Of a DNA stretch of 64,000 bases, positions 4,589 to 51,362 are shown one piece after another. The number at the start of each line of letters is the position of its first letter. The first letter of the stretch is position 1. The DNA is from an uncultured Planctomycetaceae bacterium (GTDB lineage: Bacteria; Planctomycetota; Planctomycetia; Planctomycetales; Planctomycetaceae), in contig CAWFGE010000010.1 in the NCBI GenBank assembly GCA_963815195.1, positions 288,001 through 352,000 on the forward strand. The letters run 5' to 3'. The position numbers and the translations under genes are program-made. The notes under the pieces were generated by a model. That model was given only the letters and a program-made list of their open reading frames with translations. It was not told the origin of the DNA and made no database searches.

Positions 4589-4597
4589 AATGAATCC

Positions 4598-4622
4598 TGA
4601 GCGGCACGGCGCTAGCCGCCGG
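4598..4622. repeat. REP-like palindrome, family A (second copy at 56797-56821)
   Basis: tgagcggcacggcgctagccgccgg versus tgagcggaacggcgctagccgccgg, 1 mismatch in 25; both lie just after stop codons. Confidence 0.8.
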
Positions 4623-4643
4623 CCTTGATATTGTGAGTATCCT

Positions 4644-8205: not shown

Positions 8206-10176
8206 ATGCGAAACCAGATCATCCTGACCATTGCGGTCGTCGCTTTTTCGTCCTCTTTTGCGGCCGCTGAGGATCCGAAGCTCGACATGCTGGAGGAGCA
8301 GGCTTTCAAACAAGCCGCGGCTTTGGCGGAGCCCTCGATCGTTCGCATCGAGACCGTCGGCGGGTTGGACCGCGTGGGGCAGGTGCTCGTCGGAGACGGC
8401 CCCACGACGGGAGTGATCGTCTCCGAAGACGGCTACATCATTTCCAGCTCGTTTAACTTCGCCTCGAAACCTTCATCGATCGTGGTCCGCATGCCCGACG
8501 GCCGGCCCGCCGCCGCCAAGGTGGTCGCGACGGATCATTCCAAGATGCTCACGCTTTTGAAGATCGAGGCCAAGGATCTCACCGCCCCGCAGGTCGCTCC
8601 CAAAGATTCGATCAAAGTCGGCCAATGGGCGCTGGCGCTGGGGCGGACTTATGACAACTCGCTGCCCAGCGTGTCGGTGGGCATCGTAGTCGCCAAAGAC
8701 CGCATCTGGGGCCGGGCCATCCAGACCGATGCCAAAGTCTCGCCCGTCAACTACGGCGGTCCGTTGGTCAACGTCAAAGGCGAAGTCATGGGCGTTCTCG
8801 TGCCGCTTTCGACCCGAGGCGGCGGGGAAATCGCGGGCGTGGAATGGTACGACGGCGGCATCGGGTTCGCCATTCCAATGGCAGACATCCACCGCGTCTT
8901 GGACCGCCTCAAAGCCGGCGAGGATCTCAAAGCCGGTCTCCTGGGCATCACCTTCAAAGCCGCGGGAATGCTCGGCGGCGACCCAGTGGTCGACCGCGTC
9001 CGCGTCAACTCGCCCGCCGACGAAGCCGGGCTTAAAGAAGGCGACGTGATCGCCAAAGTCGACGACCACGACATCGTTCGCCAGGCCGACGTGAAGCACG
9101 CCCTCGGGAACAAGTACGCCGGCGAAGAAGTCACCGTCACGGTTAAAAGGGACGACAAGCCGATCACCAAAACCATCAAGCTCGTGGAGGAACTCACGCC
9201 CTACGAATCCGGCTTTTTGGGCATTTTGCCGATCCGGGAAAAAATCGGCGAACCGGCCGCGGCCGGCGTGGGCGTGCGGTATGTGTATGCCGACAGCCCC
9301 GCCGCCAAAGCAGGCCTCGATACCCGCGACCGGATCATCAAGTTCAATAATGAGCCGGTGAATAGCGCCGCGGAGCTGACGGACAAAGTCAGCCGGGTGA
9401 TGCCGGGCGAAAAAGCGACGCTGGTTTATGTTCGTGGCGACAAGGAGCAAAACGCCGAGGTGGAACTGGTCTCCATCCCGAATACGGTGCTTGCGGAGAT
9501 CCGCTCATCGCCGATTCCGCCGGGTGCGAAACCGGACAATCCCAAGGAAGCCCCCAAGACCGGCCGCTTCGACGACAAGGTCCCCGACAGCGAGACCAAC
9601 TACTGGGCCTACGTCCCGGACGATTACAACCCCGCCTACAACTACGGCCTCTTGGTGTGGATTCACCCCGGCGGCGACACGATGGAGCAGGAAATCCTGG
9701 ACGCCTGGAAGTCGATCGCCCAGCAGCGAAGCCTGATTTTGGTCGGCCCCAAGGCCCAGAAGATCAGCGGCTGGACGCCCAACGAAGCCGAGATCATTAA
9801 AGCCTTGGTCGAAGATCTTAAGGACAAATACAGCATCGCCCCGGCCCGGGTGTTCCTGCACACCTACACCAACGGCGGCCGGCTGGCGTATCCGCTCCTG
9901 TTCAAGCACCGCGACATGTTCCAAGGCTTGGCGTCCGTCACCTCGCCTTTGGCCGGTGCCCCCGGCGAGAACGATCCCGACTTCCGCCAGCAATTCCTCA
10001 TCGTCGTCGGGGAGAAAGACGACCTCAAACCCCGCGTGGACGCTTCCATCAAAGCACTCGAAAAACTCAAGTTTCCGGTCAGCAGCAGCGTGGTCAAAGA
10101 CCTCAAAGACAAATACCCGTCCAAAGAAACCATCGAAGAAATCGCCCGCTGGGCCGACAGCCTGGACAGGATTTGA
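8206..10176 (+). CDS. Trypsin-like pseudo-protease with 2 PDZ domains and a C-terminal alpha/beta-hydrolase-like domain
   Basis: ISSSFNF, HSKML and SPVNYGGP replace the His/Asp/Ser motifs; 'YVPDDY...LLVWIHPGG' esterase-like domain. Confidence 0.85.
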   Translation: MRNQIILTIAVVAFSSSFAAAEDPKLDMLEEQAFKQAAALAEPSIVRIETVGGLDRVGQVLVGDGPTTGVIVSEDGYIISSSFNFASKPSSIVVRMPDGRPAAAKVVATDHSKMLTLLKIEAKDLTAPQVAPKDSIKVGQWALALGRTYDNSLPSVSVGIVVAKDRIWGRAIQTDAKVSPVNYGGPLVNVKGEVMGVLVPLSTRGGGEIAGVEWYDGGIGFAIPMADIHRVLDRLKAGEDLKAGLLGITFKAAGMLGGDPVVDRVRVNSPADEAGLKEGDVIAKVDDHDIVRQADVKHALGNKYAGEEVTVTVKRDDKPITKTIKLVEELTPYESGFLGILPIREKIGEPAAAGVGVRYVYADSPAAKAGLDTRDRIIKFNNEPVNSAAELTDKVSRVMPGEKATLVYVRGDKEQNAEVELVSIPNTVLAEIRSSPIPPGAKPDNPKEAPKTGRFDDKVPDSETNYWAYVPDDYNPAYNYGLLVWIHPGGDTMEQEILDAWKSIAQQRSLILVGPKAQKISGWTPNEAEIIKALVEDLKDKYSIAPARVFLHTYTNGGRLAYPLLFKHRDMFQGLASVTSPLAGAPGENDPDFRQQFLIVVGEKDDLKPRVDASIKALEKLKFPVSSSVVKDLKDKYPSKETIEEIARWADSLDRI

Positions 10177-11920: not shown

Positions 11921-12472
11921 ATGAAACCGCTCTGGCTTCCCATCATGCTCCTTGGTTTGTTGGCCTCGCCGGTTTCGGCTCAGGAACCGCCGAAGTTTCC
12001 CGGCCCGCAAAAAGAGCACGAGGTGCTCAAGCAGTTTGTGGGGGACTGGGAGACCGATTCGGAAGCCGAGGCCGGGCCGGGGAAGCCGGCGATGAAATGC
12101 AAGGGCCGCATCCATTCCAAAATGCTCGGCGGCTTCTGGGTGGTCTCGGAATTGGAGACGGAGATGATGGGCACGAAGGTCGTCGGCGTTCAAACGATCG
12201 GCTACGATCCCAAGACCCAAAAATACGTCGGCACCTGGGTGGACTCCGTCATGAATCACATGTGGAAGTACGAAGGCAGCCTGGATAAGACCGGCAAAAT
12301 CCTGACGCTCGAAGCCGAAGGCCCCACCTTCCTGGGGGAGGGAAAAACCGCCAAATTCCGGGATGTGTATGAGTTCAAAACAAACGACCTCATCGGCATG
12401 TCCTCTATGATCGAGGACGAGAACGGCAAGTGGATCACCTTCATGACCGGAACCGCCCGGCGGAAGAAATAG
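11921..12472 (+). CDS. DUF1579 domain protein
   Basis: 'EHEVLKQFVGDW...LGGFW...GYDP...YVGTWVDS' signature; signal peptide. Confidence 0.85.
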   Translation: MKPLWLPIMLLGLLASPVSAQEPPKFPGPQKEHEVLKQFVGDWETDSEAEAGPGKPAMKCKGRIHSKMLGGFWVVSELETEMMGTKVVGVQTIGYDPKTQKYVGTWVDSVMNHMWKYEGSLDKTGKILTLEAEGPTFLGEGKTAKFRDVYEFKTNDLIGMSSMIEDENGKWITFMTGTARRKK

Positions 12473-12559
12473 CGATCCCGGCCCGACCCGTCAAAGCCCG
12501 CGCGATTCTCGTCGAAAAGCCGAAGATCAAGGGGGGCTGCGGGCGCGCCCGCCAAAAGT

Positions 12560-12781
12560 TTGGGGAGCACCTGGGTCTTCGCGGTGCCATCGTCGTTCAT
12601 GACATACATGGTGGCATTCTCGGTCGAATCGCCGCCGTGCAATCTGACCGGTTGGCGTACTGCCACCGCCTCCTCCACCACGGGGTCTTTTGGCCGAAGC
12701 GGACTGGGTTCCCCAGACCAGGCCGAAACAAGCGAGAGCAATGGCCTAAAGACCAATCGAACGGCAGACTTGGCTTTGCAT
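12560..12781 (-). pseudogene. Decayed 5' fragment of a secreted TolB/PD40-like repeat protein
   Basis: Manual translation MQSQVCRSIGL*AIALACFGLVWGTQSASAKRPRGGGGGGSTPTGQIA, then after a frameshift ATMYVMNDDGTAKTQVLP. Confidence 0.55.
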
Positions 12782-12860
12782 ACATCCGTTTTGTTGTTGC
12801 AGGTTGCAGCTTCATTCAAACTCGTCAGTGGAAATGATTCGCGGGTACCACAGAATCAGG

Positions 12861-12937
12861 CGGTCCGGCGCGCAAACCGATCGTCCGGGGCGAGTGTCGG
12901 CCGGTGAGGGTTCTGCTTGGCGGCTGGCCCTCACCGG
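12861..12937 (-). repeat. Structured intergenic element, copy A
   Basis: About 90% identical to 15360-15439; contains a CCGGTGAGGG/CCCTCACCGG stem. Confidence 0.9.
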
Positions 12938-12949
12938 GCTTTGCTCGCG

Positions 12950-15307
12950 TCAGGAAAAGAGTTCATCCAGCAAATCGCGAAGAGACTTGCCGGAGAGGAA
13001 CAAGTTCACGGTGTCGCTTCCGATGAAGTCCGTGCCGTCGGCTGTCGTTCCGACCACCGAGACAGAGGCCTCTTGGCGGCTGGAGTCAAGGACCCCGTCG
13101 CCGTTCAGGTCGTCCAAAAGCAACTGGTCGTAGATCGCGCCAAGATTCGTATCTTGGACGTTATAAGTCAGCACCAGATCCAGACGGCCGTCGCCGTCCA
13201 CATCTTTTAACAGGCTGGAAACCGGCAGGGCGTAGGCGAAGACGACCGTGTTGGGATCCACGGTCGCGGCATCGAACGTGTCCGTGCTGACGATGGTCAC
13301 ATCGACGGTTCCCTGGCTGTTGAGGTTGAGGACCGGCCTAACCTCGATCGTCACCTCCGTGGGTCGAAGTGCCGGACTGCCCGGGTCCACAATTACGCCG
13401 TTGGCCGTCAGGTCGTGGTCGCCGCGCTGGCCATCCACGAAAAACAGCGTGATTATGTGGTTGACATCGTCGATGACGGCCCCCGTCGTCCCGTCGTAGA
13501 GGAATTCGTACCAATGCGGCGTCGCGTTGTCGGGGGTCGGGCCATATTGGTAGTAGGTGTCCACCGTGACGTCGGCGGGGTAATCCAGCGTGACAGTGGT
13601 GGCGCCGCCCGAGGCGACCCCCACAACGTTGAAGGTAAAAGAGCCAAGCGGGAACTGGACTCCGGCCGGGGCATCGGCGGGCGAGGGATTCGGAACGGCG
13701 GCGACGTCAGTCAGGCTCGTGTCCGACGGCGCTGCCAGGGTGAGAGCCGGGCCGTTGTCGCCTGCCGGCAGACTGGTAGTGTTCGATTCCGAAAAGAAAC
13801 GCGCGACGAGGCTCGGATACGGATCAAGACCGGACCACCCGCCGCCGATGATCCGGCCGCTGCCGTCAATCGCGGCGGCATACAGTCCGTCGTTGTCGGT
13901 CAGCACGGTGGTCACCTTGCCGCCCGTGCCGAAGCTGGAGTCGAGCGAGCCGTCCGCGAGCAGGCGCGCGAGCAGGAGGTGGCTGTCATCGACCCCAGCA
14001 TCCCACGTCCAGCCGGCCGCCACGATCCGGTCGCTACTGTCCAGGGTCGTACCCAGAACTTCGAAGCCGACCGCGTTCGCGTCGAACCCGAAATCGGTGA
14101 CGACTTGGCCGCCATCGCCGAAGCTCGTATCCAGGCTGCCGTCGCTGGCATTGTGGCGGGCCACGTCGAAGACCTCCGGATTCGTGACCCCATTCGGCAT
14201 AACGGAACCGCCGGACACGACGAGGTTTCCGCTGCTGTCGATGGCCAGGCCGACCGCCTCGTCCGCTGTCGCGCCGAAGGAGTCTGTAAGTACCTTGCCG
14301 CGGTCGCCGAAAGTGTCATCCGGCGTTCCATCGGTGTTAAAGCGCGCCAGTGCGATGCCGTTGAAGGCGCCGCCGTCGTGAGTGACCGTGTAAGTGCTGC
14401 CGTCGGAAAGAGTGATATCGTAGCTATCCGATTGGGAATACTCATCGGCGAGGATGATTCGATCGTTGCCATCGATGACCATCTGCAGATCCTGCCGACC
14501 GATGGTCGTCCTGGCAAAATCGAGATTGGTGGGCAACAGTTTGCTGAGGAAGCTGGTGACCAACTTGCCGCCGCTGCCGAAGCTTGTGTCCAGGCTGCCG
14601 TCCGCGTTGAAGCGCGCCACGGTTATCAAGTCGCTAATATTCTGGCCTCTGTATCTAGTTATTCCCGCTACGATAATGCGGCCGTGGCTGTCAATGCCCA
14701 CGTTATTGTAAATCCCCCCCAAAAAATGCGAGGCGATTGTGACGTTGCTCTCCCACTGACCCCCGCCAATTCCATCACTGAAATAATAGTCGGCCATCAC
14801 GAAACTAGAAGAAATCGTCACCTGGCCGCCGCTGCCAAAACTGGGATCCGGGCTGCCGTCAGGAAGCAATCGCGATACGCAAATGTCAATGCCGCTGTTG
14901 CCGCCCATGCCCACTACCACAACGCGTCCGCTGGCGTCGATCGTCATGTTGCCAGGGCCGTCAAATCCGGTCGTGGCAATCCCCTGGGTGCCAAAGCTGG
15001 TATCGAGGCTGCCGTCTGCATTAAAGCCGGCTAGCTCCCTACCGTCATAGCTGAGCCCGCGGATCTTGCCGTCGGAGGGGTTGACTGCCACATGGGCGAT
15101 GTAATCAGAGAAGTCATTGGTGACGGAACCGCCATTGCCGAAAGTGGGGTCGAGGGCACCGGCGGACAGCAGGCAGCGGTCCTCCAGCACTTCGATCTGT
15201 TGCAGGGCCGGGACGTGGCCATGCGGCCGCCGCCGTGCGCGAGAGCGGCGGGAGGAACGCAACGAGCCGCGGAGAGTCAGCGATTTTAGCCAGGATGCAA
15301 TTAACAT
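12950..15307 (-). CDS. Extracellular delta-60 repeat (beta-propeller) protein with choice-of-anchor-U-like and Ca-binding C-terminal domains
   Basis: Planctomycete LEDRCLLS motif; repeats 'ARFNADGSLDTSFGxGG'; 'YGPTPDN.TPHWYEF...DGQRGDHDL..NGVIVDP'; DVDGDG. Confidence 0.85.
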   Translation of the reverse strand: MLIASWLKSLTLRGSLRSSRRSRARRRPHGHVPALQQIEVLEDRCLLSAGALDPTFGNGGSVTNDFSDYIAHVAVNPSDGKIRGLSYDGRELAGFNADGSLDTSFGTQGIATTGFDGPGNMTIDASGRVVVVGMGGNSGIDICVSRLLPDGSPDPSFGSGGQVTISSSFVMADYYFSDGIGGGQWESNVTIASHFLGGIYNNVGIDSHGRIIVAGITRYRGQNISDLITVARFNADGSLDTSFGSGGKLVTSFLSKLLPTNLDFARTTIGRQDLQMVIDGNDRIILADEYSQSDSYDITLSDGSTYTVTHDGGAFNGIALARFNTDGTPDDTFGDRGKVLTDSFGATADEAVGLAIDSSGNLVVSGGSVMPNGVTNPEVFDVARHNASDGSLDTSFGDGGQVVTDFGFDANAVGFEVLGTTLDSSDRIVAAGWTWDAGVDDSHLLLARLLADGSLDSSFGTGGKVTTVLTDNDGLYAAAIDGSGRIIGGGWSGLDPYPSLVARFFSESNTTSLPAGDNGPALTLAAPSDTSLTDVAAVPNPSPADAPAGVQFPLGSFTFNVVGVASGGATTVTLDYPADVTVDTYYQYGPTPDNATPHWYEFLYDGTTGAVIDDVNHIITLFFVDGQRGDHDLTANGVIVDPGSPALRPTEVTIEVRPVLNLNSQGTVDVTIVSTDTFDAATVDPNTVVFAYALPVSSLLKDVDGDGRLDLVLTYNVQDTNLGAIYDQLLLDDLNGDGVLDSSRQEASVSVVGTTADGTDFIGSDTVNLFLSGKSLRDLLDELFS

Positions 15308-15359
15308 GGTTTAAAACCCTTTTGGCAAAGTCGGTTTGCGCAGGTAGAATCAAACCAGC

Positions 15360-15439
15360 CGGTCCGGGCGCGCAAACCGATCGTCCGGGGCGGGTGTCGG
15401 TCGGTGAGGGTTTTTGCTTTGGCGGCTGGCCCTCACCGG
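15360..15439 (-). repeat. Structured intergenic element, copy B
   Basis: Direct repeat of 12861-12937. Confidence 0.9.
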
Positions 15440-15459
15440 CCGGTTTCAGTTGTTCGTTG

Positions 15460-17926
15460 TCAGTGTCCTTCCGGGGAACGTGCAGAATTTTTTGAGCCGG
15501 GGAGGAGTTGGCGGTGGCCGCGCCGACCGATTTCCAGGACCTGACGCTGAAGCCGTTCCGCCTCGTCTTTTTGGCCCAGTTTTTCAAGCACGCCCGCCAG
15601 GTCATCCATGGTTTTGAGCGCGTCGGGATGTGCCTCGCCCGACACACGCTGCTGAATTTCCAAGATCCTGCGAAGGATGTCCGCTGCCTGTTGGTAACGC
15701 ATTTGGTCGATGAGCACACTGGCCAGACTCTGCAGTGAGATCAATCGGGTCGGATGATCCTCTCCCAGGATGCTCTGGTCGATAGCGACCACTTGACGAA
15801 GGAGTTGTTCCGCCTCATCGTAACGCTGTTGGCCCTGGAGCGCGCGCACCACATTGAATGTGGTGCCCAGGGTCCATGGATGCTCTTTCCCGAACACGCG
15901 GCGGCAGGCGGCCAGCAGGTCTCGCTGAAGTTGTTCCGCTTCGCGGTAGCGTCTTTGGTGAAAAAGCGCGACCGCGAGATGGTGCCTGGTCATGAGTGAG
16001 TCTAAGTCCTCTTCACCCAGGGCACGGCTTTGCACTTCGAATGTCCGCCGGGCCAACTCTTCGGCGTCGATGAGACACCCCATATCACTCAGCGTCCAAG
16101 CCAGGTCCGAGGCGATCTTGAGTGTGACTCGGTGTTCCTTTCCGAGCTCGCGCCGGGCACGAATTAGCAGCGCTTCGAGCTTCTCCCTGGCCGGCTCGTG
16201 ATCGCCTCGCCTTTCGAGAATCCAGGCGGAGATCCGCTCCGCGTCGATGGTCGCGGCATCATTCTCACCCAGGTGTTTTTGCCTGAGTTCGACCGATCGG
16301 TTCGCATGCTCCAGCGCCTTTTCATAATTCCTCAGCGGCAGGTACGTCTTGGCGAGCGTCTCGCGAATCGCTGCCTCGACCAACGGCTGGTGCTTGAACC
16401 TCGTCTCGATGCTCTGCCCCGTTCGGTCCAGCACGTCTCGCAACTTGAGGCCCGGGTTCGCAGTGTTTTCAGGACTGGCCTGGTCCAACAGGTCGTTCAG
16501 AAAAGCGTTCACGGCCTGGGAAATCGCCGCCTCGTCGGCGGCGCGCCGTTCGGCCGATTGCGTCCGCTTCAATTCCTCGGTGACGCGGCGTTCGGCCTGT
16601 TGGACACGGCCGAGTTCCTGGGTCACTTGTATTTCGGCCCGCGTGGCCCGGATGGCCTGCCAGGTGGCCAGACCGGTGCCGATAGCCAGTGCAGCCAATA
16701 CGAGAACCGCGGTCGTCAGCCCTGTCTTGTTTCGCCGGGCGAGTTTCCGCAGGCGATACCACATCGACGGCGGGCAGGCTTCGACGGGTTCGTTTTCCAG
16801 GTGACGCCTTATGTCCTCTGCCATGGCGCATCGGCGATTCGTACCGCCGGTTGCGGTCTTTTTCCAATGCTCTCATCACGATCCAATCCAACTCGCACCG
16901 TAGGGAGTGGCTGAGTTTGCGGGGATCGATGCGGCGGCTGCCGGAGATCGTGCAGAGCAGTTCCACGTTCAACGTGCTGATCCGGGTGCTGGGGCGGGCC
17001 GGGTCCACTTCGCGGATCATCCGCCGGAACTCGTCGAAGCCGGCGGTCTTCAGAACCTCTTTATCGAACGGCGTCGTGCCCGTGAGGAGTTCGTAAAGCA
17101 AGACCCCCAGGGAATACACGTCGCTCCGCGTATCAATGTCCAACCCGCTGAATTGGGCCTGTTCCGGGGACATATACAGCGGCGTGCCGATCATCTGGCC
17201 ATAGGACGTGTAAACCGTTTTCTCAGTCAGTTTCACGCTTAAGGCTTTGGAGACGCCGAAGTCGATCACCTTCACCATCGGCTTGTCGTCATGCAGCGTG
17301 ACCATTACGTTCGAGGGTTTAATATCCCGGTGAATGATCCCTTTTTGATGGGCATGCTGGACGGCCCGGCAGACATCGATGAACAACTCCAGCCGCTCCC
17401 GCGTCGAGAGCTTCCGCTCATCGCAAAATGTCGTGATAAGCACGCCTTTGACGAGTTCCATCACGAAGTAGGGCCGGCCTTGCTCGGTCGTCCCCGCGTC
17501 CAGCACCTTGGCGATATTCGGGTGATCCATCAAAGCCAGGGATTGGCGCTCGGCTTCAAATCGGGCGATGACCTCCCGCGTGTCCATGCCGGGCTTGATG
17601 ATCTTGAGAGCCACCTTGCGGCGGACCGGCTGTTCCTGCTCCGCCACAAACACCAACCCAAACCCGCCTTCGCCAATCTGCTCCCGGAGTTGATAAGGCC
17701 CGATCTGGGTTCCCGGTTTTTCCAGGATCGCCGGCAAATTGAATGTCGCCACGATCGCGGGGTCTTCCAAAAAGGAAGCGGGGTCTTCGTCCGCGGCGAG
17801 CAAGGCCTCGACGCGGTTCAACAATTCCTGATCCTCCCCGCACGCGTCGCGGAGGTAAACTTGACGCTCCGCGAAGGAGGCTTTCTCGCGGGCTGCGTAA
17901 AAGACAGATTCCTCTCGGTCGCTCAT
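15460..17926 (-). CDS. Hanks-type Ser/Thr kinase with a TM helix and C-terminal TPR repeats; frameshift near 16830
   Basis: GEGGFG, VALK, HRDIKPSN, DFG, GTPLYMSPEQ; the second frame resumes AEDIRRHL and carries 'LG.EHP.TL' TPRs. Confidence 0.9.
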
Positions 17927-17986
17927 CAAGCGATCCCCGACACAGGGTGAAATCAGATGAAGTTGGGGAATTTCCCCCCCTCATGT

Positions 17987-18020
17987 CATAGCGCGTATTC
18001 TGACCGGGAATTCCCTCACG
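17987..18020 (-). promoter_or_regulatory. Candidate ECF-dependent promoter upstream of the kinase (GTGAGGG...CGCGCT)
   Basis: Located in the sigma-kinase spacer; assignment is by recalled resemblance only. Confidence 0.3.
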
Positions 18021-18059
18021 AAAATCCCCAGTTTCTGAAAAAATCCCAGAAAACTTCCG

Positions 18060-18614
18060 TTATTCGCTCAAGCGGCATTGCAGCCAGGCGCGTGTGTAAG
18101 CCCAATACCTGTCAGCCGTTGCGGATGAAATCTCCAGAAGTTCCGCGGCCTCGGAAAGGGTGAATCCGCAGAAGTATCGCAGTTTGACCAACTCCGCTTT
18201 GACGGGATCTCGCTGGGCGAGTTCTTCCAAGGCATCGTTTAACGCGAGCAGTTGCGGGGCGGGAATTCGCGAGACAATCTGGCCGGGGTCGAAATCGACC
18301 CGCTGATGATGCTTGCCCCGCTTCCAAGCCTGTTTCCGCCGGGCGTTTTCGATGAGAATCTGCCGCATGGCCTCGGAAGCGACCAGGAAAAAATGTTTGT
18401 GGTTGTTCCAGCGGCGCTCGGCGTCGGGTTCAATCAGTCGCAAATAGGCCTCATGCACCAATGCCGTCGCCTCGAGCGTGTGCTCGGGGCGTTCGGCCGC
18501 CAACTTCGCCGCGGCGAGCTTGCGCAATTCATCATAGACCAATGGCAAAAGCTGCTCGGCTGCCGCGGAATCGCCGCCTTGGATCGCAGAAAGTATCTCG
18601 GTGACATCGCTCAT
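18060..18614 (-). CDS. ECF sigma factor, TIGR02999 (STK-associated) family
   Basis: MSDVTEIL...LLPLVYDELRKLA...TLEATALVHEAYLRL...W.Y.RAWL. Confidence 0.93.
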   Translation of the reverse strand: MSDVTEILSAIQGGDSAAAEQLLPLVYDELRKLAAAKLAAERPEHTLEATALVHEAYLRLIEPDAERRWNNHKHFFLVASEAMRQILIENARRKQAWKRGKHHQRVDFDPGQIVSRIPAPQLLALNDALEELAQRDPVKAELVKLRYFCGFTLSEAAELLEISSATADRYWAYTRAWLQCRLSE

Positions 18615-18867
18615 GAGAGAATAGTCTAGCCAGAATGGGACAGGAAATCCCCTAGAAAATCCTCTCAAAATCCCATTCGCGCATCGGATAGATCAGTCGG
18701 CCCCCGTTGGCCGGCGTCGCTGAATTCGGCTGTCGAGCGGGAAAACCACAAAGTTGTTTTCGTTCAGTCATTTCCGGACTCGCATCGTTTTGCCTTTGAA
18801 TCCGGGTTTCAACAAACGATCATGAATTATTATTCCTCTATTCGTTCCGACTGGCGGCCGTGGCAAG

Positions 18868-19578
18868 ATGGGAGGCGGAGTGTCCGCGTATATTGCCCTT
18901 TGCGATGTGTATAAAACCTATGGAACCACCGTGAAGACCCATGCACTGCGGTCGGTTTCTTTGGACGTGAACCGGGGAGAGTTCGTGGTCATTTTAGGGC
19001 CGAGCGGTTCCGGCAAGACAACGCTCCTCAATATCTTGGGCGGATTGGACAGCGCGACCAGCGGGTCTGTGCAGGTCGGCGGGCTGGATTTGTCGAAGCT
19101 CACCGCTCGCGAGCTTTCCAAATATCGCCGGGAGACGGTGGGGTTCATTTTTCAGTTTTTCAATCTGGTCCCCAGTCTGACGGCTCGCGAGAACGTGGAG
19201 TTTGCCGCGGATTTGCATCCCGGTTCCATGAGCGTGGACGAAACCTTGGCTGCCGTGGGCCTGGCGGAATTTGCGGACCGGTTTCCCTCGGAATTGTCCG
19301 GGGGGCAACAGCAGCGGGTGGCCATCGCCCGGGCGCTGGCGAAGTCCCCGCAGATGTTGTTGTGCGATGAGCCGACCGGTTCGGTCGATCAGGAAACCGG
19401 AAAGCAAATCGTGGGACTGTTGCAACGGGCGGCTGAGGGCGGCTGCACACTGCTGGTCGTGACCCACAACAATGCCTTGGCGCATGCCGCGGACCGGGTG
19501 ATTCACCTCAAGGACGGGCAAATTCAATCCGACGAGCGAAATGCCGCCCCGCTTCCCGCCCTGGACTTGGTTTGGTAG
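18868..19578 (+). CDS. ABC transporter ATP-binding protein (LolD/MacB type)
   Basis: [26 protein letters not shown]. Confidence 0.95.
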
Positions 19579-19587
19579 GGATCGTCC

Positions 19588-22038
19588 ATGCTCGCACGCA
19601 AATTGAGACGGGAGCTTTGGCAGCAGCGCGGCCACAATCTGGCGATCGCCATGGCGATGGCTTTGGCCGTGTGTTGTTTCGTGGCCAGCCGAAATAGTTA
19701 TCTCGATCTCAAGGGCAGCTACGCCCAGATTCAAAATGATCTGAATCTCGCCGACTGGACAATCGAGGTCGCTCATCTTTACGCCGCCGATGTGGAACGG
19801 ATCCGGCAGGTCGAGGGCGTCAAAGCGGCGGAGGATCGGATCGTCGTCAGTCTGCCGGTCGTGTTGCCCGAGGGGCGGTTGGGTCCCGATGTCAGGGGCC
19901 GCGTGCGTTTGGAAGGCCGGTTTATCACGCTGCCTTCGGGGCATCGGCCGCGGTTGAACCAACTGCTCATCGAGGACGGGGCCTATCCCGAAGCGCCCAA
20001 CGAGGTGCTCGTCGAAAAACATTTTGCGGAATTCCACGGCATCGAACCGTCCGCAACTTTGGAACTGGAAATCCCCGGCGCGCCGCGGAACGTGACTTTG
20101 AAGGTCTCGGGGATCGTGGTGAGCGCGGAATATCTGTGGGTCAGCCGGAACGAATACGACATCATGCCTTCGCCCGCAAGCTTCGGCGTGTTTTGGATCG
20201 ACCGGGAAGCGCTGCGGCGGTATCGGTTGCGGCCGCAAGTCGCGGCCGGGCTTCGGGCGATGCTGGGCGGCGGCGGAGGCCAAGGTGGAGCGGGTTCCGA
20301 TGTCCGGGTCGAATCCAGCAAACAGATCCTGATCCAAGTGGCGAAAGGCGACAATCCGAAGGCGGTGTTGGAACGCGTCGTCGGCGTCTTGGGGAAAGAA
20401 GATGTCGTCTCCACGATGGCTCGCGACGAGTCGCCCCAAACGGAAATCCTCCGCACGGACATGCAAAGTCTGCACGGGTTTGCGATTTTCTTTCCGACTC
20501 TGTTTTTGGTCGTGGGTGGCTCCGTGGTCGCCGTGTCTCTTTCCCGCGTGATCGACGCCCAACGCACAATAATCGGCACAATGCTGGCCTTCGGCGTCGA
20601 ACGGTCCCGGATTTGGCGGCATTATCTCGCATTTGCTTGGGTGATCGGCCTGTTGGGGGCTGTGCTTGGCATCGGGATCGGCATGGAGGTCGGAAGGGTT
20701 TTGACCCGCGCTTACGCCCAGGTCGCGGGCGTGCCCCGCCTGACGTTTGCGTTTCACGAACGGGTCCTCATTTTGGGCGGGTTGTTTGGATTGTTCACCG
20801 CGACCGTTGCGGGGCTTCTCCCGGCGTACCGGGCCGCCGCGATCTATCCGGCCCAGGCCATGCGGCCGCCTGCACCAGCGATGAATGCCGGGGTCTCTCT
20901 GCTCCGGCGGCTAAGCGGGCGATTGCCGTTGCCTGTGCGGTTGGCGATTCGCAACCTGATGCGCCGGCCGGGCCGGAGTTTGGCCTCTGTGGGGGGCGTG
21001 GCGGCGGCGCTGGTTCTTGTCCTGGCCGGGTCCGGCGTTGTCGATGGATTGAATCGCACCACCGAAGTCCTTCTCCAAAAATCCTGGCGGTACGATCTGC
21101 GTGTCGACTTTTTTACTCCGGAGCCCAAACAAACGTTGTTTGGTCTCCTCCATCGGACCGAGGACATTGAAACCTGGGAGAGTGCTTTAACCGTCCCGGC
21201 CCAAATTCAAGCCGGCGACATACGCCTGGACACGGTTGTCGAAGGCATTTCTCCGGAGAGCGAACTGCTCCAGCCGGCAAATATGGAAGGCCAGATCGTC
21301 CGGCCCGGTGAGGGCGTGGTTCTGCCCGCGGCGTTGGCCCGTCAACTGGATGTCCACGCAGGCGACACCGTGCAACTCCAAGCGCTCCCGCAAGGAGCCG
21401 AGATCGAAGTGCCCATCGAACACATCACCGAAGGGCTGGGGGCGGAGGTTTTTATGCGGCTGGACAAAGCCCAAACCACGTTTGCCGAGCCGGGGCTGGT
21501 GAATTGTCTGCTCATCAAGACCAAAGTGCCGAGTTGGAAGTTTCGCCAATCGCTCCAAACGCTGCCCCAAGTGGCCCGGCTGCAAGACATGCAGGATCTC
21601 CGCGAGCGGATCGCACGGATCATGGATTTCAACTACCTGCTGGTCACGTCCATGCTGCTGTTCAGCGCCATTCTGGGCAGCGCCATTCTTTTCACCACGA
21701 GCACGTTGAATATCTGGGAACGGCGGCGCGAATTGGCCACGATGCGGGCCCTCGGGTTGCCGTTTCGGCAAATCGTGGGCATGGTCACGCTCGAGCATTG
21801 CCTCCTGGGTCTCGTGGGCGTGGCGGTGGGAATTCCCTTCGGCATTTGGGCGATGCGCGGGGCTTTAAATCTCTACGAATGCAGCTTTCTCACGCTGCCC
21901 TTGATCCTCAAACCGGGCACGTTCGCGCTGGCGATTGCGAACATTTTCCTCGTGCTCCTGTTGGCCCAGTGGCCGGTTTTGCGCTCGATCGCGCATCTCA
22001 ATCTGGCGGATGTTGTCCGAGAACGCCGCGAAGGCTGA
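19588..22038 (+). CDS. ABC transporter permease (tandem FtsX/MacB type)
   Basis: Two periplasmic-domain plus 4-TM units; 'ERRRELATMRALG'. Confidence 0.9.
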   Translation: MLARKLRRELWQQRGHNLAIAMAMALAVCCFVASRNSYLDLKGSYAQIQNDLNLADWTIEVAHLYAADVERIRQVEGVKAAEDRIVVSLPVVLPEGRLGPDVRGRVRLEGRFITLPSGHRPRLNQLLIEDGAYPEAPNEVLVEKHFAEFHGIEPSATLELEIPGAPRNVTLKVSGIVVSAEYLWVSRNEYDIMPSPASFGVFWIDREALRRYRLRPQVAAGLRAMLGGGGGQGGAGSDVRVESSKQILIQVAKGDNPKAVLERVVGVLGKEDVVSTMARDESPQTEILRTDMQSLHGFAIFFPTLFLVVGGSVVAVSLSRVIDAQRTIIGTMLAFGVERSRIWRHYLAFAWVIGLLGAVLGIGIGMEVGRVLTRAYAQVAGVPRLTFAFHERVLILGGLFGLFTATVAGLLPAYRAAAIYPAQAMRPPAPAMNAGVSLLRRLSGRLPLPVRLAIRNLMRRPGRSLASVGGVAAALVLVLAGSGVVDGLNRTTEVLLQKSWRYDLRVDFFTPEPKQTLFGLLHRTEDIETWESALTVPAQIQAGDIRLDTVVEGISPESELLQPANMEGQIVRPGEGVVLPAALARQLDVHAGDTVQLQALPQGAEIEVPIEHITEGLGAEVFMRLDKAQTTFAEPGLVNCLLIKTKVPSWKFRQSLQTLPQVARLQDMQDLRERIARIMDFNYLLVTSMLLFSAILGSAILFTTSTLNIWERRRELATMRALGLPFRQIVGMVTLEHCLLGLVGVAVGIPFGIWAMRGALNLYECSFLTLPLILKPGTFALAIANIFLVLLLAQWPVLRSIAHLNLADVVRERREG

Positions 22039-22318: not shown

Positions 22319-25300
22319 ATGAATGAATCCCTTTCCTCTGAAATCGCGGGCAGTTCGTCGATTGTCGAACTATTAATCCGGCGAGCGCTCGCTCATCCCC
22401 AGCGGACTTTTTGCACCTATTCCGACGAGGGCACGCCGCCTCGGCTTCGATGGACCTATGCCGATCTGGACGCCCAGGCCCGGCGGATTGGGAGTTGGCT
22501 GCAGTCGCGGAACCTGGCGGGCCAACCGGTGCTGTTGGCATTTCCTCCAGGGCTGGACTTTGTCACGGCATTTTTTGGGTGCCTGTATGCGGGGGCCATT
22601 GCCGTTCCCAGTCCGCCGCCCCGGCGAAACCCCAAGTCCGACCGGTTTTTCAGCATCTACAAGGACTGCAAAGCCGAGTGCGTTTTCACCACGGCCGACG
22701 TGCTGGACCGCGTGCAAACTTACGCGAAGACCCACCCCGCGCTCGCCACGGTTCCCTGGCAGGTGTTGGAGGGAATTGGAGCGGATTCCGCCGACGCCTG
22801 GCAAGACCCCGGCGTCTCGCTTAGTACGATCGCCTTTTTGCAATACACGTCGGGTTCGACCGGCGATCCCAAAGGCGTCGTGGTGGACCACGGCAATTTG
22901 CTTCACAATCAAAAGCTCATCACCGGCGCGTTCGGGCAGACCGAGGAGATGGTGACCATCGGCTGGCTGCCGATGCACCACGATATGGGCCTTGTCGGCA
23001 CGCTGCTGCACCCGCTGTCTCTGGGCGGCACGCTGCATCTGATGTCGCCCATGGGATTTCTGCAAAACCCCATTCGCTGGTTGAATTTGATTTCCGAACT
23101 TCGCGGCACGATCACCACCGCCCCGAATTTCGCCTACGAATTGTGCATCACCCGCACCACGCCCGAAGAACGGACCCCCCTGGACTTGTCCTGTCTCCAA
23201 ACGGCCTTGAATGGAGCCGAACCCGTCCGGGCGAGCACCCTCCGCCGATTCTCCGAAGTCTTTGCGCCCCAAGGCTTCCGTCCGTCGATCTTCTGCCCCT
23301 GCTACGGCATGGCGGAAACGACCTTGCTCATCAGCGGCGTGCACCGTGCGGAAAACCCGCTCGAGCACATCATCGAACGCCAGGCGGCCAACCCGGCGTC
23401 CAACGGCGATGCGGATCACGCTCTAAACATCTCCCCGGATTGCCCGGCCGAATTGGTCCACTGTGGAACGCCCCACCCGGATTTGGATGTTCGCATCGTG
23501 GATCCCGAAACCTTCACCGAACGCCCGGATGGGGAGATCGGCGAAATTTGGGTTTCCGGCCCGAGCGTGACCCGAGGCTATTGGCACCGCCCGGAACTCA
23601 CCAAAGACACATTCCAGGCGGAAATTCATCGCGACCGCTCCACGAACGGCAATGGAACATCTTCCAAGTATTTCCGCACGGGCGATTTGGGACTCAAACA
23701 AGCCGGCCGCCTCTATATCGCCGGGCGATTCAAGGATGTGATCATCCTCAACGGCGTGAATTACTATCCTCACGACCTGGAAGCCTCCGCCGTCGCCTGC
23801 GACGACCGGTTGGTCGAAGGCCGGGGCGTGGCGTTCGGCACGGAGATTGAAGGCGGCGAAGAAGTCGTGCTCGTCTTGGAGGTCAAACGCGAGCACGTCC
23901 GCCAACTGGATGAGGACATCCTCACCAACATCCTCACCGAAATTCAACAGACTTGGGAAATCTCTCCCGCAGCTGTGCTGCTCGTGCGGCCGGGTTCCGT
24001 TCCCGTGACGACCAGTGGCAAGGTGCAACGGCAACTTGTCAAACAGCAATTTCTCGCGGGCGAACTTTCCCCGATCACCCAATGGAACCGCCCCCGTGCC
24101 TGCCGGACTTCTGGGAGGGAATCCGCCGCAGAACCGATGGAACCTCGCACGCAAACGTATTCCGAACGGGAATCGCTCAGGGATCTCGAGCGGTGGATGG
24201 CCGGCCGGTTGTCGCAAATCCTGGAAGTGCCGCGAGATGCGATCGACATCCGCGAGCCGTTCGCGCGGTATGGCTTCAAATCGCAGCACGCCGTGCAGTT
24301 TTGCGCCGACTTGGAGCAACGCGTCCACCGCCGAATCGAGCCGGCCTTGGCTTATGATTATCCCAACATCGCCGAACTGGCGAAATTCCTGCATTCCGGA
24401 AACGACCAACCCCGGCTTCAAAATGGCCGGGCTGCCCATCGCCGGAAAGACCGGCAGGAACCGATCGCGATCATCGGCATCGGTTGCCGATTTCCCGGTG
24501 CGAACAATCCCGAGGAATTTTGGGAACTGCTGCGAAGCGGGCAATCGGCCCTCAGGCCTTACCCGCGGGAACGGTGGGGCGAGTGGCAACAGCAACTCGC
24601 CGAGTCCGCCAGCCCCGGGCACCCGCTGCCGCCCCTCGGCGGGTTTTTGGACCATGCCGAGGACTTCGATCCGCTGTTTTTCGGAATCAGCCCCCGCGAA
24701 GTGGAAACGCTCGACCCCCAGCAGCGGCTCGTCCTAGAGGTCTGCTGGCAAGCGCTGGAGCACGCGGGCCTGCCTGCGGATCAACTTGCCAGGCAACAAA
24801 CGGGCGTGTTCCTTGGCGTGAGCGGGGCCGAGTATGCCCATCTTCAAGCCCGACTGAATTGCTCGCCCACCGGCTACAATGCGACCGGCAACTCTCTGGC
24901 GATGATCGCCAACCGCCTCTCTTACACGCTGGATTTGCACGGGCCAAGCCTGGCGTTCGACACCGCCTGCTCGTCCTCCCTGGTTGCGGTGCACGCGGCC
25001 TGCGAAAGCCTCAAACGCGGCGAATGCGAAGTTGCAATCTGCGGCGGAGTGAGCCTCATCACTTCTCCCGCCGTAACCGCCTCGCTCAACCAGGCGGGGA
25101 TGCTCTCTCCCACGGGAGCCGCCGCCGCTTTCACCCAAGACGTCGATGGCTACGTTCGCGGCGAAGGTTGTGGAATCGTCATCGCCAAACGCCTCAGCCG
25201 GGCCGTCGCGGATCACGATCGCATCATCGCCGTCGTCGCGGGGAGCGCGATCAACCACGACGGCCGCAGCAATGGCCTGACCGCCCCCAACGGCCGCGCC

Positions 25301-28300
25301 CAGCAGAGCGTCCTTCAGCAGGCTCTCGCAAACGCGGACTGTTCCCCCGGCCAAATCGACTACCTCGAAGCCCACGGCACGGGCACGGTGTTGGGGGATC
25401 AGATCGAGGTCAACGCCCTTCGCCGCGTGTTCTGGAGCGAAACGGATCCGGAAAAACCGCTGCGGATCGGTTCGGTGAAATCGAACATCGGCCACCTGGA
25501 GGCCGCCGCCGGAATTGCCGGCTTCATCAAAGTCTGCCTGTCCCTTCAGCACGAAGAATTGCCCAAGCATGTCTGCCACCAACCGCTCAACGAGCCACTG
25601 CTTTCCGGCTCGAATTTGCAGGTCGTCCAAGACGCCGCCCTCTGGCCAAGAAGCGAACAACCCCGGCACGCCGGCGTGAGTTCTTTCGGATTCGGCGGCA
25701 CAAACGCCCACGTGGTCCTCAAAGAAGCCCCAGGGCCAAAGCCGGCCACTCCCTTTGAACCGCCGACGCACATCCTCGTGTTGTCGGCGAAAACGGAATC
25801 GGCCCTGCATGCGCTCGCCCAAAACTGGCAGCAGCAATTTCCGGAAGGACCGCTTCCCGCGATCTGTTACACCGCCAATGCGGGCCGCGCACGGTTTCCG
25901 CATCGACTGGCCCTCGTCGCAGACCGCCGGGAAGATTTTCAAAACCAACTCGGCGACTTTCTTCGAAAAGTCACAGCCGGAAAACGGGTGGTCGAACGAG
26001 ACGAAATCCGAACCTCGCATCGCCTGGTCGTTCGGCGGAGAATTTCCTCTCCCCGGAAGCATCGGCAAAGATCTCTATGACCACATTCCCGGCTTTCGCA
26101 GTCTTTTCGATCAGCTGGATGATCGATTCCAAAAACACGACCTGCCTTCTCTGAAATCCGTCCTCTGGAACGGCGCGTCCTCAAATAATGAAGAGCAAAT
26201 GCTTAATCGTTTGGTCGGTTGGCAGTTGGCCTATGGCGGGTTTCTCAAAACGCTCGGTATTCCCTGCGATGGGATCCGCGCGGACGGTGCGGGAGAACTC
26301 GCCGCCGCCGTTTATTCCGGCCTCGTGGAAATTGACGCGATTCTCGATCGGCTGGCAAAAAAAACCATCGGCGAATCCGTCGCCCTCCCGACACCTGCGG
26401 AATTGCAGGCGGACATAGAACTGAAACTATCTCCAGCCAAGAGCACGGCTGAGCGGGCTCGCACAAGCGGCAGCCCGATCACACAACTCGGGTGGCCCGG
26501 ACAGTCGGGCGGGGAATACCGATCCTTACTCACACTCCTCGCCCGCCTCTACGTCCTCGGCGTGCATATCGATTGGCGGCCGATCTATCCGCCGGATCTG
26601 GAAAAAGTTTCCGTACCCTATTCTCCCTTCGAGCGCAAGCCCTATTGGATTTCCCGCCAACTCCTAGAGACGCCATCGAACATTCAAACCGCCGCATGGC
26701 TGCACCCGCTCTTGCATCGGCATTATGATCTTTCAGGCGCGGAACAGGTTTTTGAAACCGACCTCTCGAAAGTGGAATTCTTGAAGGACCATCGAATCCA
26801 AGACGCCGCGGTGTTTCCGCTGGCCGGCTATCTGGAGATGGCCGCCTCCGCCGCCCGGATGATCAATGGCACCTTGGGAACGGTGGACGATCTCGAGATC
26901 ACATCGCCGATTCAGATCACCGGCGGTGAAGCGTGCATCGTGCAACTCGTTCTCCGCCCCGAAGGAGCCGGATGGTCCGCGACATTCAACCGCAAAACCC
27001 CTCAAGGCTGGCAACCGCACGCGGCATGCCAAATCCTGCCGAGCGAGAACCACAGCGACACGAGCGGTGCCGTGGCTTGGCCGGAGGTTCTGAATCAGCC
27101 CTCCGCCGCCGCGGCCATTCCGGAGTATTACGATCGATTGCGGCAGGCGGGTTTGGACTATGGCCCGGCGTTCCAAACGCTCCAGCTTTTGCACGCGGAT
27201 GCTGGAGCGGCCTGGGCGGTGATCGCCGCGGAACAGGCTGGTGTTTCTCGTGAATTCGGCATTCATCCCGCCCGGCTCGATGGCTGCTTTCAAGCGATCG
27301 CCTCTGCATTACCGCCGGAAATCACAACGACTTTAGTGCCCACACATATCAAGCGCTTCTGCATAGATCGCAAGCTTGAGGGAGGGGAACCGCTCTATTG
27401 CCACGTCCATCATCTTCAAAACGAGGGCGCAGGCTTTGTCGTGGATCTCGATATATTCGATAAACACCAAACCCGCGTCGCCCAAATTGAGCAACTCAAG
27501 CTTCAACCGCTCGAACGTTCCCGCTTAGGTTATTATGTCGCCGATTGGCCTGCGCAAATCCGATCGAAGGATTTCCCGCCCACCTATATAGAGCCGCCGG
27601 CGACACTCTCTGCGCATTTAAGATCCCGGTATGCACAAGACTATAATGTCTCTCAAGTCGAAGCCCACTCGGCGCTGCTGGACCAATTGGAAGAAGCGAC
27701 CGCCGGCTGTGCTTTGGATGTCTTGTCTCAATTAGGTTTAGATCTCCGCCCCGGCCGCGAATTTCCATTAGCAGATGCCGTTCAATGTTGCCGAGTGGTG
27801 GAAACGCAAGAAGCCTTGTTTACAAGGCTGTTAAACATGCTTGTGGAAGATGGGCATCTGAACCTTAACAAAGGCCTGTATTCGGTTGAGAAGCCGATCG
27901 CCCGCTCTTGGATGTCCGCCGTTCCGGAATCTTCGCACGTCGAATTTGCCTTGTTCGAGCGCTGCCTGGAACACTTGCCGGACGTTATGCAGGGAAGGTG
28001 CGATCCGCTGGAGATTCTGTTCCCGACCGATGAAGCCGCCTCCGCTTTGCAGCTTTATACCGAGTCGGTCGGCGCCAAGGCCTTAAATTACTTAACGGCC
28101 GAAGTCGTTGCTCAGATCCAAAGCCAATTGCCTGAGGGGCGGGGATTAAAGATTTTGGAAGTGGGAGCCGGCACCGGAGCGACGACCGAAGCCGTGCTGA
28201 AACGAACTCGTTCCCGGCGTCTCGCCTATGCCTTCACCGATATTTCCTCGCATTTCTTCGCCGCCGCGAAACAACAGTTCTCGCAATATCCCATCAGCAC

Positions 28301-31300: not shown

Positions 31301-31560
31301 TCCCGCTACAGTCTGCAATCTTTTTTGATTATCCGACCTTGAGCGGATTGTCGTCTTACTTGTTGACCTTAATCCAACAGGATGCGTCACGAGCGGAAGC
31401 CGCATCACCGAATATCTTGTCAACAAGGGAAACTGAGCCTGCACTCGAGGGGGAAGTGACGAGTGATCTGGAGATTAATACCGAGGATGAGGAGACGCGG
31501 GACAAACTGATGGAGATTGCGCAGGAACTTCAAAAGTGGGATGATATGTATAGTGGCTAG
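22319..31560 (+). CDS. Type I PKS: FAAL-ACP-KS-AT(degenerate)-DH-cMT-ER-KR-ACP; split by frameshifts near 25965 and 30025
   Basis: YTSGSTGDPKG; GFKS ACP; DTACSSS/HGTGT/NIGH; DH HRIQDAAVFP and DGCFQ; LEVGAGTG; HSATGGVG; GGMGGLG; GLDS. Domains continue across three ORFs. Confidence 0.88.
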
Positions 31561-50633: not shown

Positions 50634-50719
50634 TGTGCCACTGGCAGCTTGCTGCCAGTGCATTCCCGGGTTGACGGTCGGTTACGGAAAACACTGGCAA
50701 CGAGTTGCCAGTGGCACCC
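50634..50719. repeat. Inverted pair of REP-like palindromes, family C (degenerate copy near 10543)
   Basis: gtgccactggcagcttgctgccagtg ... cactggcaacgagttgccagtggcac. Confidence 0.75.
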
Positions 50720-51253: not shown

Positions 51254-51280
51254 AGGGGCAAAGGCCACAAAGGAGCAAAG
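51254..51280. repeat. Short intergenic repeat shared with 62905-62931
   Basis: aggggcaaaggccaca(a/g)aggagcaaag, 1 mismatch in 27. Confidence 0.8.
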
Positions 51281-51362
51281 TCCGCAAAGTTTCAAATCAG
51301 TTTAGTCCGCCCCCCAAATTCTGACAATTCGGTTTCTTCCATCCTATACTTCGAGGTTCGCT

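Follow-up and report, generated by a model that had tools for sequence, protein, structure and literature searches.

What is the function of a short structured sequence that is repeated in front of the genes of one bacterial operon? This question is raised by a 64,000-nucleotide stretch of DNA (the window) from an uncultured Planctomycetaceae bacterium (contig CAWFGE010000010.1), in which near-identical copies at 12861-12937 (copy A) and 15360-15439 (copy B) flank a gene for a 785-amino acid protein with delta-60 repeats. Both copies lie downstream of genes for an extracytoplasmic function (ECF) sigma factor (TIGR02999/PF07638) and for a Ser/Thr kinase with TPR repeats. The original prediction for this repeat proposed either an undescribed cis-regulatory RNA or a recombination site. 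Our sequence analyses indicate that the repeat most likely encodes a small RNA on the strand opposite the downstream (cargo) genes, that this RNA gene has a promoter and a stop signal of its own, and that the RNA probably holds the cargo genes down in the manner of plasmid replication control. The family amounts to hundreds of predicted small RNAs without an Rfam match. If our interpretation is true, a switch of plasmid replication control operates here as a module repeated along the chromosome, and this switch might serve as a compact part for tuning expression. Little is known about the promoters and targets of the many ECF/kinase pairs in planctomycete genomes, and an RNA layer open to testing would tie such pairs to surface-protein expression.

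The repeat and its two strands

The two copies are identical at 74 of 80 alignment columns, and a BLAST search of the 8.87-Mb genome (~59% GC) with the repeat returns 90.8% identity over 87 nucleotides (E = 2e-25), in agreement with the direct repeats of ~90% identity first noticed. On the strand of the cargo mRNA, the predicted stem with its CGCCAA loop and the following GAUCGGUUUGCGCG are all present, and the stem begins 12 (copy A) and 20 (copy B) nucleotides after the upstream stop codon, matching the proposed range of 12 to 20. Three other descriptions need revision. The element is longer than the ~80 nucleotides described, reaching ~30 nucleotides further toward the cargo start codon, and this extra portion holds a -10 box and a 9-10-nucleotide partner of the UUUGCG segment. 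The reported lack of a U-tract applies to the sense strand only, because runs of T follow the hairpin on the plus strand at 15444-15446 and 12940-12942. Finally, each copy was said to end ~50-80 nucleotides before the start of a secreted-protein gene. This is true of copy B (53 nucleotides, intact gene), whereas copy A is followed by an open reading frame (ORF; ATG near 12815) that is a truncated remnant with multiple frameshifts.

Copy B exhibits the complete set of features expected for an RNA gene on the plus strand. A promoter scan identified the -10 box TAGAAT (15345..15350, +), which reads TANAAT in family copies, and the -35-like hexamer TTGGCA (15322..15327, +), which together form the best sigma70-type match in 12700-18800 (10 of 12 matches, 17-nucleotide spacer). 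This generic scan over 6 kb, with TTGGCA-17-TAGAAT (15322-15350) at the top, gave two sites where 1.5 are expected, and so is weak alone. The predicted antisense RNA of ~88-90 nucleotides (15357..15447, +; ends presumed) forms a 5′ hairpin and a terminator hairpin with a fold z-score of -3.8. The loop of the 5′ hairpin (15370..15379) reads GCGCAAACCG in the small RNA, and its complement on the mRNA (minus strand) is called segment M. The second hairpin, P1 (15399..15446, +), has the apical loop UUGGCG (15419-15424), for which the mRNA carries CGCCAA, and a T tail that resembles the end of an intrinsic terminator. Segment Z (15332..15341, -) has the mRNA sequence GCGCAAACCG, pairs with loop M, lies ~33 nucleotides before the cargo ATG within the spacer of the antisense promoter, and the M:Z helix appears in the mRNA fold of copy B.

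The corresponding RNA gene of copy A (12858..12945, +) has a fold z-score of -0.6 and scores 69 bits with our covariance model R2, compared with 85 for copy B. Its -10 region (12846..12856, +) is degenerate (TACCAC/CAGAAT), and the equivalent copy in genome G003 (L065:14989) keeps TAGAAT. Segment Z of copy A (12836..12844, -) pairs with M through two G-U pairs. Copy B is intact, and copy A is probably decaying together with its cargo gene. The lineage of the window carries a compensated UUU/AAA variant of M:Z.

The same anatomy was examined in 59 of the 69 matches to a covariance model called R1, after removal of one duplicate, one reverse-strand match, and eight partial or degenerate matches. 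On the mRNA strand, the order is an A-run, P1 with a CGCCAA-type loop, the hairpin P2 with loop M (CGGUYYGCG), AUUNUA, the M complement Z, the Shine-Dalgarno (SD) sequence, and the start codon. The opposite strand has TANAAT in place of AUUNUA (42 of 59) and a U-tract in place of the A-run. Wobble pairs assign the two helices to different strands. P1 contains more A-C pairs than G-U pairs when read as mRNA (29 versus 12), and in 55 of the 59 copies its fold is better on the opposite strand. M:Z has 52 G-U and 19 A-C pairs on the mRNA strand, including 30 versus 0 at three variable core pairs, and pairs better on that strand in 31 copies versus 5. The strand preference of P2 is not clear-cut (20 versus 38). 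UUUGCG co-varies with its partner, and therefore appears to be a pairing strand rather than a fixed target word.

Two hairpins begin ~7 nucleotides past the -10 box with a median fold z-score of -4.0, and 44 of 48 copies fall below -2. An intrinsic terminator on the sense strand was rejected, because the sequence after P1 carries 1.1 T per 10 nucleotides in the sense direction compared with 4.7 in the antisense direction. Covariation at fixed P2 columns is weak (one pair with a mutual information of 0.99; 37-53% of cells paired in the P2 helices of the models) because arm lengths vary, and P2 is supported instead by per-sequence folds. When the mRNA was folded with nested pairs only, P2 was chosen in 28 and M:Z in 24 of the 59 copies. 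A conserved -35 box was not found across the family, with TTG occurring in the -35 zone of only 43 of 189 homologues. The words TACAAT, TAGAAT, or TAAAAT are located upstream of 10 of 97 tRNA and tmRNA genes, and 5 were found on the reverse strand.

Because R1 was trained on the features under examination, these were evaluated again in copies retrieved by a pattern that excludes the -10 box, Z, the U-tract, and the SD sequence (255 loci with 258 matches, of which 231 are non-redundant with full flanks). TANAAT is present in 149 of these 231 copies and in none on the other strand, and TANNNT in 189 versus 43. The -10 box lies 18-22 nucleotides from the loop in 172 of the 189, and two spacings are rigid (19 nucleotides in 126 and 21 nucleotides in 107 of the 189). 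TTT follows the hairpin in 184 of 231 copies, compared with 4 for AAA. At least six of nine M:Z positions form Watson-Crick pairs in 172 of 189 copies, versus 12% at random sites, with Z ~32 nucleotides before the start codon. An SD sequence and start codon occur 30-36 nucleotides from the -10 box in 118 of 189 and were not found in 15.

The retrieval pattern fixes most of M, and a count of 65 versus 2 wobbles in this set is therefore biased and was not relied on. At the one M position left free, M = C with Z = A occurs in 0 of 14 copies and M = U with Z = G in 18 of 158. In alignments to R2, a model without M:Z pairs, wobbles fit the mRNA strand by 18 to 2. Among 29 held-out R2 matches, pairing on the small-RNA strand extends to 96.5% of P1 cells, and compensatory changes include the apical pair closing the UUGGCG loop. 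The P2 columns scored poorly in these matches, again with varying arm lengths. We regard the structure and strand assignments as well supported by these comparisons. A counter-transcript very probably exists, and formation of the M:Z helix on the mRNA is nearly as probable.

Spread of the family and the genes it precedes

The element is a module of ~120 nucleotides, of which BLAST and nhmmer uncovered 11 copies in the genome and the covariance models 14 (R1) and 17 (R2). Matches to R1 occur in 11 of 61 genomes, all from the bacterium's own family, and R2 matches in 29 of 150 family genomes and in 3 of 150 genomes drawn from the entire phylum. An exact-pattern search returned at least 126 metagenome and at least 129 genome stretches, and no match among viral contigs. 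Among the matches listed, 73 of 80 titles name Planctomycetota (Gemmataceae, Pirellulaceae, Planctomycetaceae, Phycisphaerae). Another six are bins labelled Alcaligenaceae or Deltaproteobacteria, of which the two that were inspected appear intact and may be mis-binned. The last is a Streptomyces match that carries none of the remaining element features. A match in a cultured Bythopirellula (L389) is missing the -10 box and Z. Rfam comparison of window positions 12700-15600 and of 20 homologous loci returned nothing on the element, and no description of it was found in the literature, as judged from search entries rather than full texts.

The module appears to be copied as a unit, because similarity between copies has sharp edges. 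The similarity sets in abruptly at the edge of the terminator (for 49 of 62 pairs, between -5 and +9) and, at its other end, either stops at the -10/Z region or continues into the signal peptide. The window and G003 have the element and cargo in common and differ in the 3′ half of the kinase gene. Four tandem copies are present at L001:8690-12665 (G000:C19), where the final codons of the upstream kinase gene are part of the duplicated unit, as is, in two cargo genes, a near-identical signal peptide that leads into different passenger domains. Hairpin insertions of 10-30 nucleotides, in the terminator loop or between the hairpins, leave the conserved loops in place at L003:8243-8373 and 8901-9030, L057, L066, and L076.

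Among the 87 main-type copies, 54 have an ECF gene and a kinase gene upstream on the same strand within 12 kb (two of them assigned by hand from the adjoining stretch), and 17 have a kinase gene only. For comparison, 20000 random positions in the genome gave 45 ECF/kinase pairs (0.2%) and 904 kinase genes alone. TIGR02999 is above its cut-off in 42 of 61 genomes. The sigma factors of element-bearing loci are clustered, and the ECF proteins are only ~50% identical. A single clade of such ECFs was not found (12 label changes versus 21.1 when shuffled, in a quick tree with most forks open).

The cargo proteins look exported. A crude signal peptide was recognized in 47 of 169 N-termini and a prepilin motif in 4. 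A motif E-x-L-E-x-R, defined by our own regular expression, is present in 73 of 169 cargo N-termini versus 11 of 1181 background ORFs, and we take it to be the one labelled LEPR-XLL. Domain scans of 38 and 26 proteins, from 86 cargo ORFs called, detected HAF, delta-60, TolB-like, FG-GAP, Calx-beta, PKD, and PEP-CTERM domains, and most proteins had no match.

The sigma factor of the window can be compared with ECF43, a group that is described in the passages cited as confined to Proteobacteria, with the sigma2.2 consensus QTTA and predicted GTC/CAG boxes (PMC7826278, supplement part 13). The window protein has the motif TLEATAL, and most relatives have TLQATAL, which is uncharged and carries Thr. 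By its sequence, and compared by definition rather than with group models, the window sigma factor is of the ECF43 kind, with a Sigma70_ECF domain, a kinase gene at +1, and an uncharged Thr motif. EcfK-PknS and EcfP-PknT, which are ECF43/Hanks kinase systems, share these traits (PMC13147305, PMC8999054, PMC7826278). By analogy with EcfK and EcfP and with the ECF43 description in the parts cited of the same sources, the sigma factor would be switched on by the kinase through phosphorylation. In contrast, the box before the kinase gene is CGCAYTG in the planctomycete loci, and the passages cited describe no RNA layer for ECF43 systems.

A counter-transcript switch and its alternatives

In plasmid ColIb-P9 (IncI-alpha), one loop is contested by the Inc RNA and by the nucleotides immediately preceding the repZ SD, such that a pseudoknot permits translation and kissing blocks it, according to the passages cited (PMC4705826, PMC10724649, PMC7491321). 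The planctomycete element resembles Inc/repZ and the I-complex plasmids, as far as the cited parts describe them, in several respects. A counter-transcript is encoded ~50-140 nucleotides upstream of the start codon and is complementary to a leader stem-loop (predicted here from sequence), the loop of the target base-pairs with the nucleotides immediately 5′ of the SD, the antisense loop repeats those nucleotides and would compete with them, and the loop words UUGGCG/CGCCAA occur. Unlike those plasmid systems, the element is chromosomal, is repeated for each gene, and precedes genes for exported-type proteins rather than Rep. It also lacks a leader peptide, an SD-masking hairpin, and a weak GUG start, has two conserved loops with the pairing loop in the 5′ hairpin, and carries UUGGCG on the small RNA instead of the mRNA. 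By analogy, it may work like a plasmid counter-transcript switch while not being a member of that family.

Counter-transcripts of ~90 nucleotides are also known from plasmids such as R1, where CopA, the antisense RNA of CopT, has two hairpins, a 3′ terminator with a bulged upper stem, and a U-turn-type loop. The small RNA predicted here is similar in length and in its two hairpins, the 3′ one being a terminator that likewise has a bulged upper stem and a loop of the U-turn type. It differs in having no replication gene, an extra M:Z pairing on the mRNA, and reversed loop polarity.

Because the first loop of the small RNA is identical to Z, in keeping with the ColIb-P9 geometry, we propose that the element acts as a threshold valve. 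The housekeeping RNA polymerase would make the ~88-nucleotide RNA constitutively, and the kinase-activated ECF sigma factor would direct transcription of the kinase and cargo genes as one polycistron, starting from the box that precedes the kinase gene. The small-RNA loop, which equals Z in sequence, would compete with Z for M. An mRNA caught by the small RNA before M:Z forms would not be expressed, owing to duplex formation, RNase III cleavage, or loss of M:Z, followed by polarity, and an mRNA that forms M:Z, either as a pseudoknot or as an alternative helix, would escape and be translated. Each cargo gene would thereby have its own threshold, with leaky transcription silenced until ECF output exceeds the antisense RNA. 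We consider the odds on this whole mechanism, including its sign, to be even. A bolder proposal is tentative and probably goes too far. A plasmid-style switch might have become a portable chromosomal valve before exported-protein genes of kinase-activated ECF operons, where it would convert graded phosphorylation into thresholded output gene by gene. The loops differ between loci, and such variants might be locus addresses that limit cross-talk, with M:Z acting by a route undescribed for I-complex plasmids.

Several observations weigh against this interpretation. A conserved leader peptide was not found in the family, where an ATG is present in 79 of 162 leaders with frames split 28/29/22 and stops scattered, and Z shows no specific anti-SD character, as the opening energy is 8.3 kcal/mol compared with 8.2 for shuffled Z (n = 52). 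With neither a leader peptide nor an SD-masking hairpin, any output step of M:Z is hypothetical, and its sign could be the opposite. The SD sequences are mostly strong and the start codons AUG, which is unlike repZ, and the small RNA does not overlap the SD. A ProQ/FinO domain was not found in the genome, which is 94.6% complete. Also, 16 of the 87 main-type copies have no kinase gene upstream (10 of them with less than 8 kb visible), and a single weak element match came from 43 further ECF loci, which were picked because no element had been linked to them, so the link between element and ECF is one-way. A subfamily of eight among the 95 copies precedes DUF1559 genes and has weak M:Z, no ECF gene nearby, and longer leaders. 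In addition, the copies are related by descent, and our counts overstate their independence.

The DUF1559 subfamily retains the promoter, the hairpins, and the terminator. Its members precede prepilin-type genes, carry a GGGTTGG stem and, in some instances, a TTG -35 element, and are located at L006:7785-7900, L085:7334-7453, L153:6652-6778 and 8674-8796, L154:7261-7384, L053, L054, and L067.

Other functions for the same RNA gene can be considered. The duplex between the counter-transcript and the intergenic mRNA could be cut by RNase III, dividing the polycistron into stabilised cargo mRNAs, with M:Z as the uncut, protected fold. GadY, for example, directs the processing of gadXW. The element indeed sits at an intergenic position at every gene junction in these operons, RNase III is present in the genome, and the small RNA leaves the SD uncovered with no anti-SD or leader peptide. 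We nevertheless judge such processing unlikely, since it does not explain why the small-RNA loop equals Z or why the distance from Z to the start codon is fixed. The RNA gene always keeps a fixed distance to a cargo start codon, which points to cis action and makes it distinctly unlikely that the small RNA is active in trans or through a protein (the ECF sigma factor, the TPR or WD40 domains of the kinase, or a host RNA-binding protein) with mRNA pairing secondary. The small-RNA loop is also unlike the candidate ECF promoter (median score -9.6 versus 20.8). A role of this type would be consistent with stems that are conserved letter for letter and spacings that are rigid even though the ECF proteins have diverged so far, and with a DUF1559 subfamily that has the RNA yet weak M:Z. 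A quite improbable scenario is transcriptional interference, in which read-through is damped by a convergent sigma70 promoter that overlaps the ribosome-binding region of each cargo gene, the hairpins serving only to end the transcript. A strongly conserved -10 box at a fixed distance to the start codon and an efficient-looking terminator would suit this model, which leaves the conserved loops, the 5′ hairpin, and M:Z covariation with mRNA-strand wobbles unexplained.

The remaining possibilities concern what was first proposed for the repeat. An attC-like recombination site, with each cargo gene an exchangeable cassette, finds some encouragement in the sharp copy edges at the terminator, in similarity that sometimes extends into the signal peptide, in the shared element and cargo but different kinase 3′ halves of the window and G003, and in an integron integrase encoded in the genome (G000:C25:20804-21541, +; above the family cut-off, at a contig end). 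However, this integrase is the only one, its contig carries no element, and none of the 59 copies has the RYYYAAC ... GTTRRRY ends of attC, whose identity with the element was rejected. The edges are accounted for if a needed module spreads by ordinary duplication or by homologous recombination, and the promoter, U-tract, and wobble polarity are features of an RNA gene. We therefore consider a cassette site very improbable. REP/BIME identity was likewise rejected and the element is not a randomly placed repeat, as anticipated, given 17 copies in 8.9 Mb, an orientation fixed to the start codon, and strong ECF/kinase linkage.

The prediction of an undescribed cis-regulatory RNA with antisense pairing agrees with our results, except that the partner appears to be the opposite strand of the element itself rather than a separate RNA of the phage C4 type. 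The complementarity to C4 loops that had been proposed was misplaced, because in the portion of Weinberg 2010 cited (PMC2864571) the UUGGCG/GCAAA-type loops stand in rows for the c4-a1b1 target, not in C4 rows. Six of these supplement rows look alike by eye to the element hairpin loops, with words such as GCAAAAU and UUAGCGA/UUGACAG that also follow a TATAGT-like box. In the table of that paper, c4-a1b1 carries no Rfam number. This resemblance could favor a separate phage-derived C4-type RNA acting on the element, but no match to C4 (RF01695) or c4-2 was obtained at E ≤ 10 in window positions 12700-15600 or at 20 homologous loci, none reached the gathering score in the window, the exact-pattern search for the element matched no viral contig, and the loops vary from locus to locus. 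A genome search for a small RNA with both loops gave 128 places, among which only the opposite strand of copy B has TANAAT upstream, leaving the element itself as the sole promoter-linked two-loop candidate. We deem a C4 target extremely improbable. C4 identity of the element was also rejected, given the lack of an Rfam match, the opposite-strand layout, and the lack of phage context.

The C4 RNA of phages P1 and P7 and its c4-a1b1 target do share two-loop recognition with the element, whose small-RNA strand has two promoter-proximal hairpins with a1b1-like loops (PMC5320573, PMC2864571, in the parts cited). C4 is, however, processed by RNase P from a same-strand transcript into a closed three-stem fold, according to the cited part of PMC5320573, whereas the element is predicted to yield a primary opposite-strand RNA with two separate hairpins and its own -10 box and terminator. 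No C4 gene was found at the 20 loci, and an SD with an ORF follows the terminator in only 5 of 170 copies. A shared U-turn-type loop design is the likelier explanation for the matching loop words. Rhodopirellula-1, which is absent from Rfam, shows no apparent relationship in the three supplement rows cited (PMC2864571). Judged from its sequence features, the element is a predicted RNA-level regulatory module conserved across planctomycetes and a variant of the plasmid-type counter-transcript switch that we have not found described.

A candidate ECF promoter and neighboring features

The box CGCAYTG is present in the ECF-kinase spacer at 33 of 70 loci versus 5 of 280 control windows. The word TG[AGC]G precedes it at a fixed spacing of 19 nucleotides, and the kinase start codon is mostly 30-60 nucleotides further. 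A looser box, GCAY(T/A)G, follows the ECF gene at 28 of 30 element loci versus 14 of 40 others. Among non-element ECF loci, 11 of 42 have no adjacent kinase gene. From its position and ECF-like geometry, we infer that the CGCAYTG box is the sigma factor's own promoter, and a candidate TIGR02999 promoter is thereby proposed. The arrangement TG[AGC]G-N19-CGCAYTG also occurs in the spacers of L001, L002, L003, L050-L083, and L135-L194, including loci without the element. An ECF promoter within the element itself was rejected, since Z taken as a -10 element has a median score of -12 and the loop -9.6, compared with 20.8 in training, and a sense-strand site of at least 12 occurs in 4 of 173 copies.

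In the window, the candidate ECF-dependent promoter of the kinase-cargo operon (17989..18019, -) consists of GTGAG, 19 nucleotides, and CGCGCTA, which is imperfect relative to the family CGCAYTG, with a matrix score of 13.4 versus the training median of 20.8. Upstream is the ECF43-like sigma factor gene (TIGR02999/PF07638; 18060..18614, -), with 195 bits for PF07638. TAGACT sits 8 nucleotides 5′ of its ATG, which suggests that this mRNA is leaderless. More generally, TANNNT is found 5-9 nucleotides before the sigma start codon at 29 of 70 loci, and sigma genes often look leaderless. At L007 (G000:C15:141237-141545), a TIGR02999 sigma gene is interrupted after ~38 codons, apparently by an insertion sequence.

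The Ser/Thr kinase gene (15460..17929, -) is split by an apparent frameshift near 16825, which places the Pkinase and TPR_12 domains in two ORFs (16469-17929 and 15460-16824). Cargo gene 1 (12950..15307, -), preceded by the SD-like AAGGG (15317..15321, -), codes for the 785-amino acid exported-type protein with delta-60 (DUF5122) repeats and a choice-of-anchor U domain (TIGR02608, NF041766, PF17164). Cargo gene 2 is a remnant (12259..12815, -) broken across three frames, and a three-frame reading recovers a start with a signal peptide and a Gly run as in other cargo genes. Apparent frameshifts are frequent in kinase, sigma, and cargo genes, and also occur at L051, L055, L057, L059, L061, L080, and L083.

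Beyond the sigma gene, the window carries, by eye, an ABC transporter (18868-22038) and then a fatty-acyl-AMP ligase/polyketide synthase-like gene cluster that is divided among several ORFs (22319-32700, +). A tandem 15-nucleotide coding repeat of ~30 units occupies 1955-2409. Short REP-like direct or inverted repeats of other families are located at 4594-4627, 56793-56826, 50635-50717, 51254-51290, and 62905-62958, and a relative of the 4594-type repeat also follows the ECF gene in L185.

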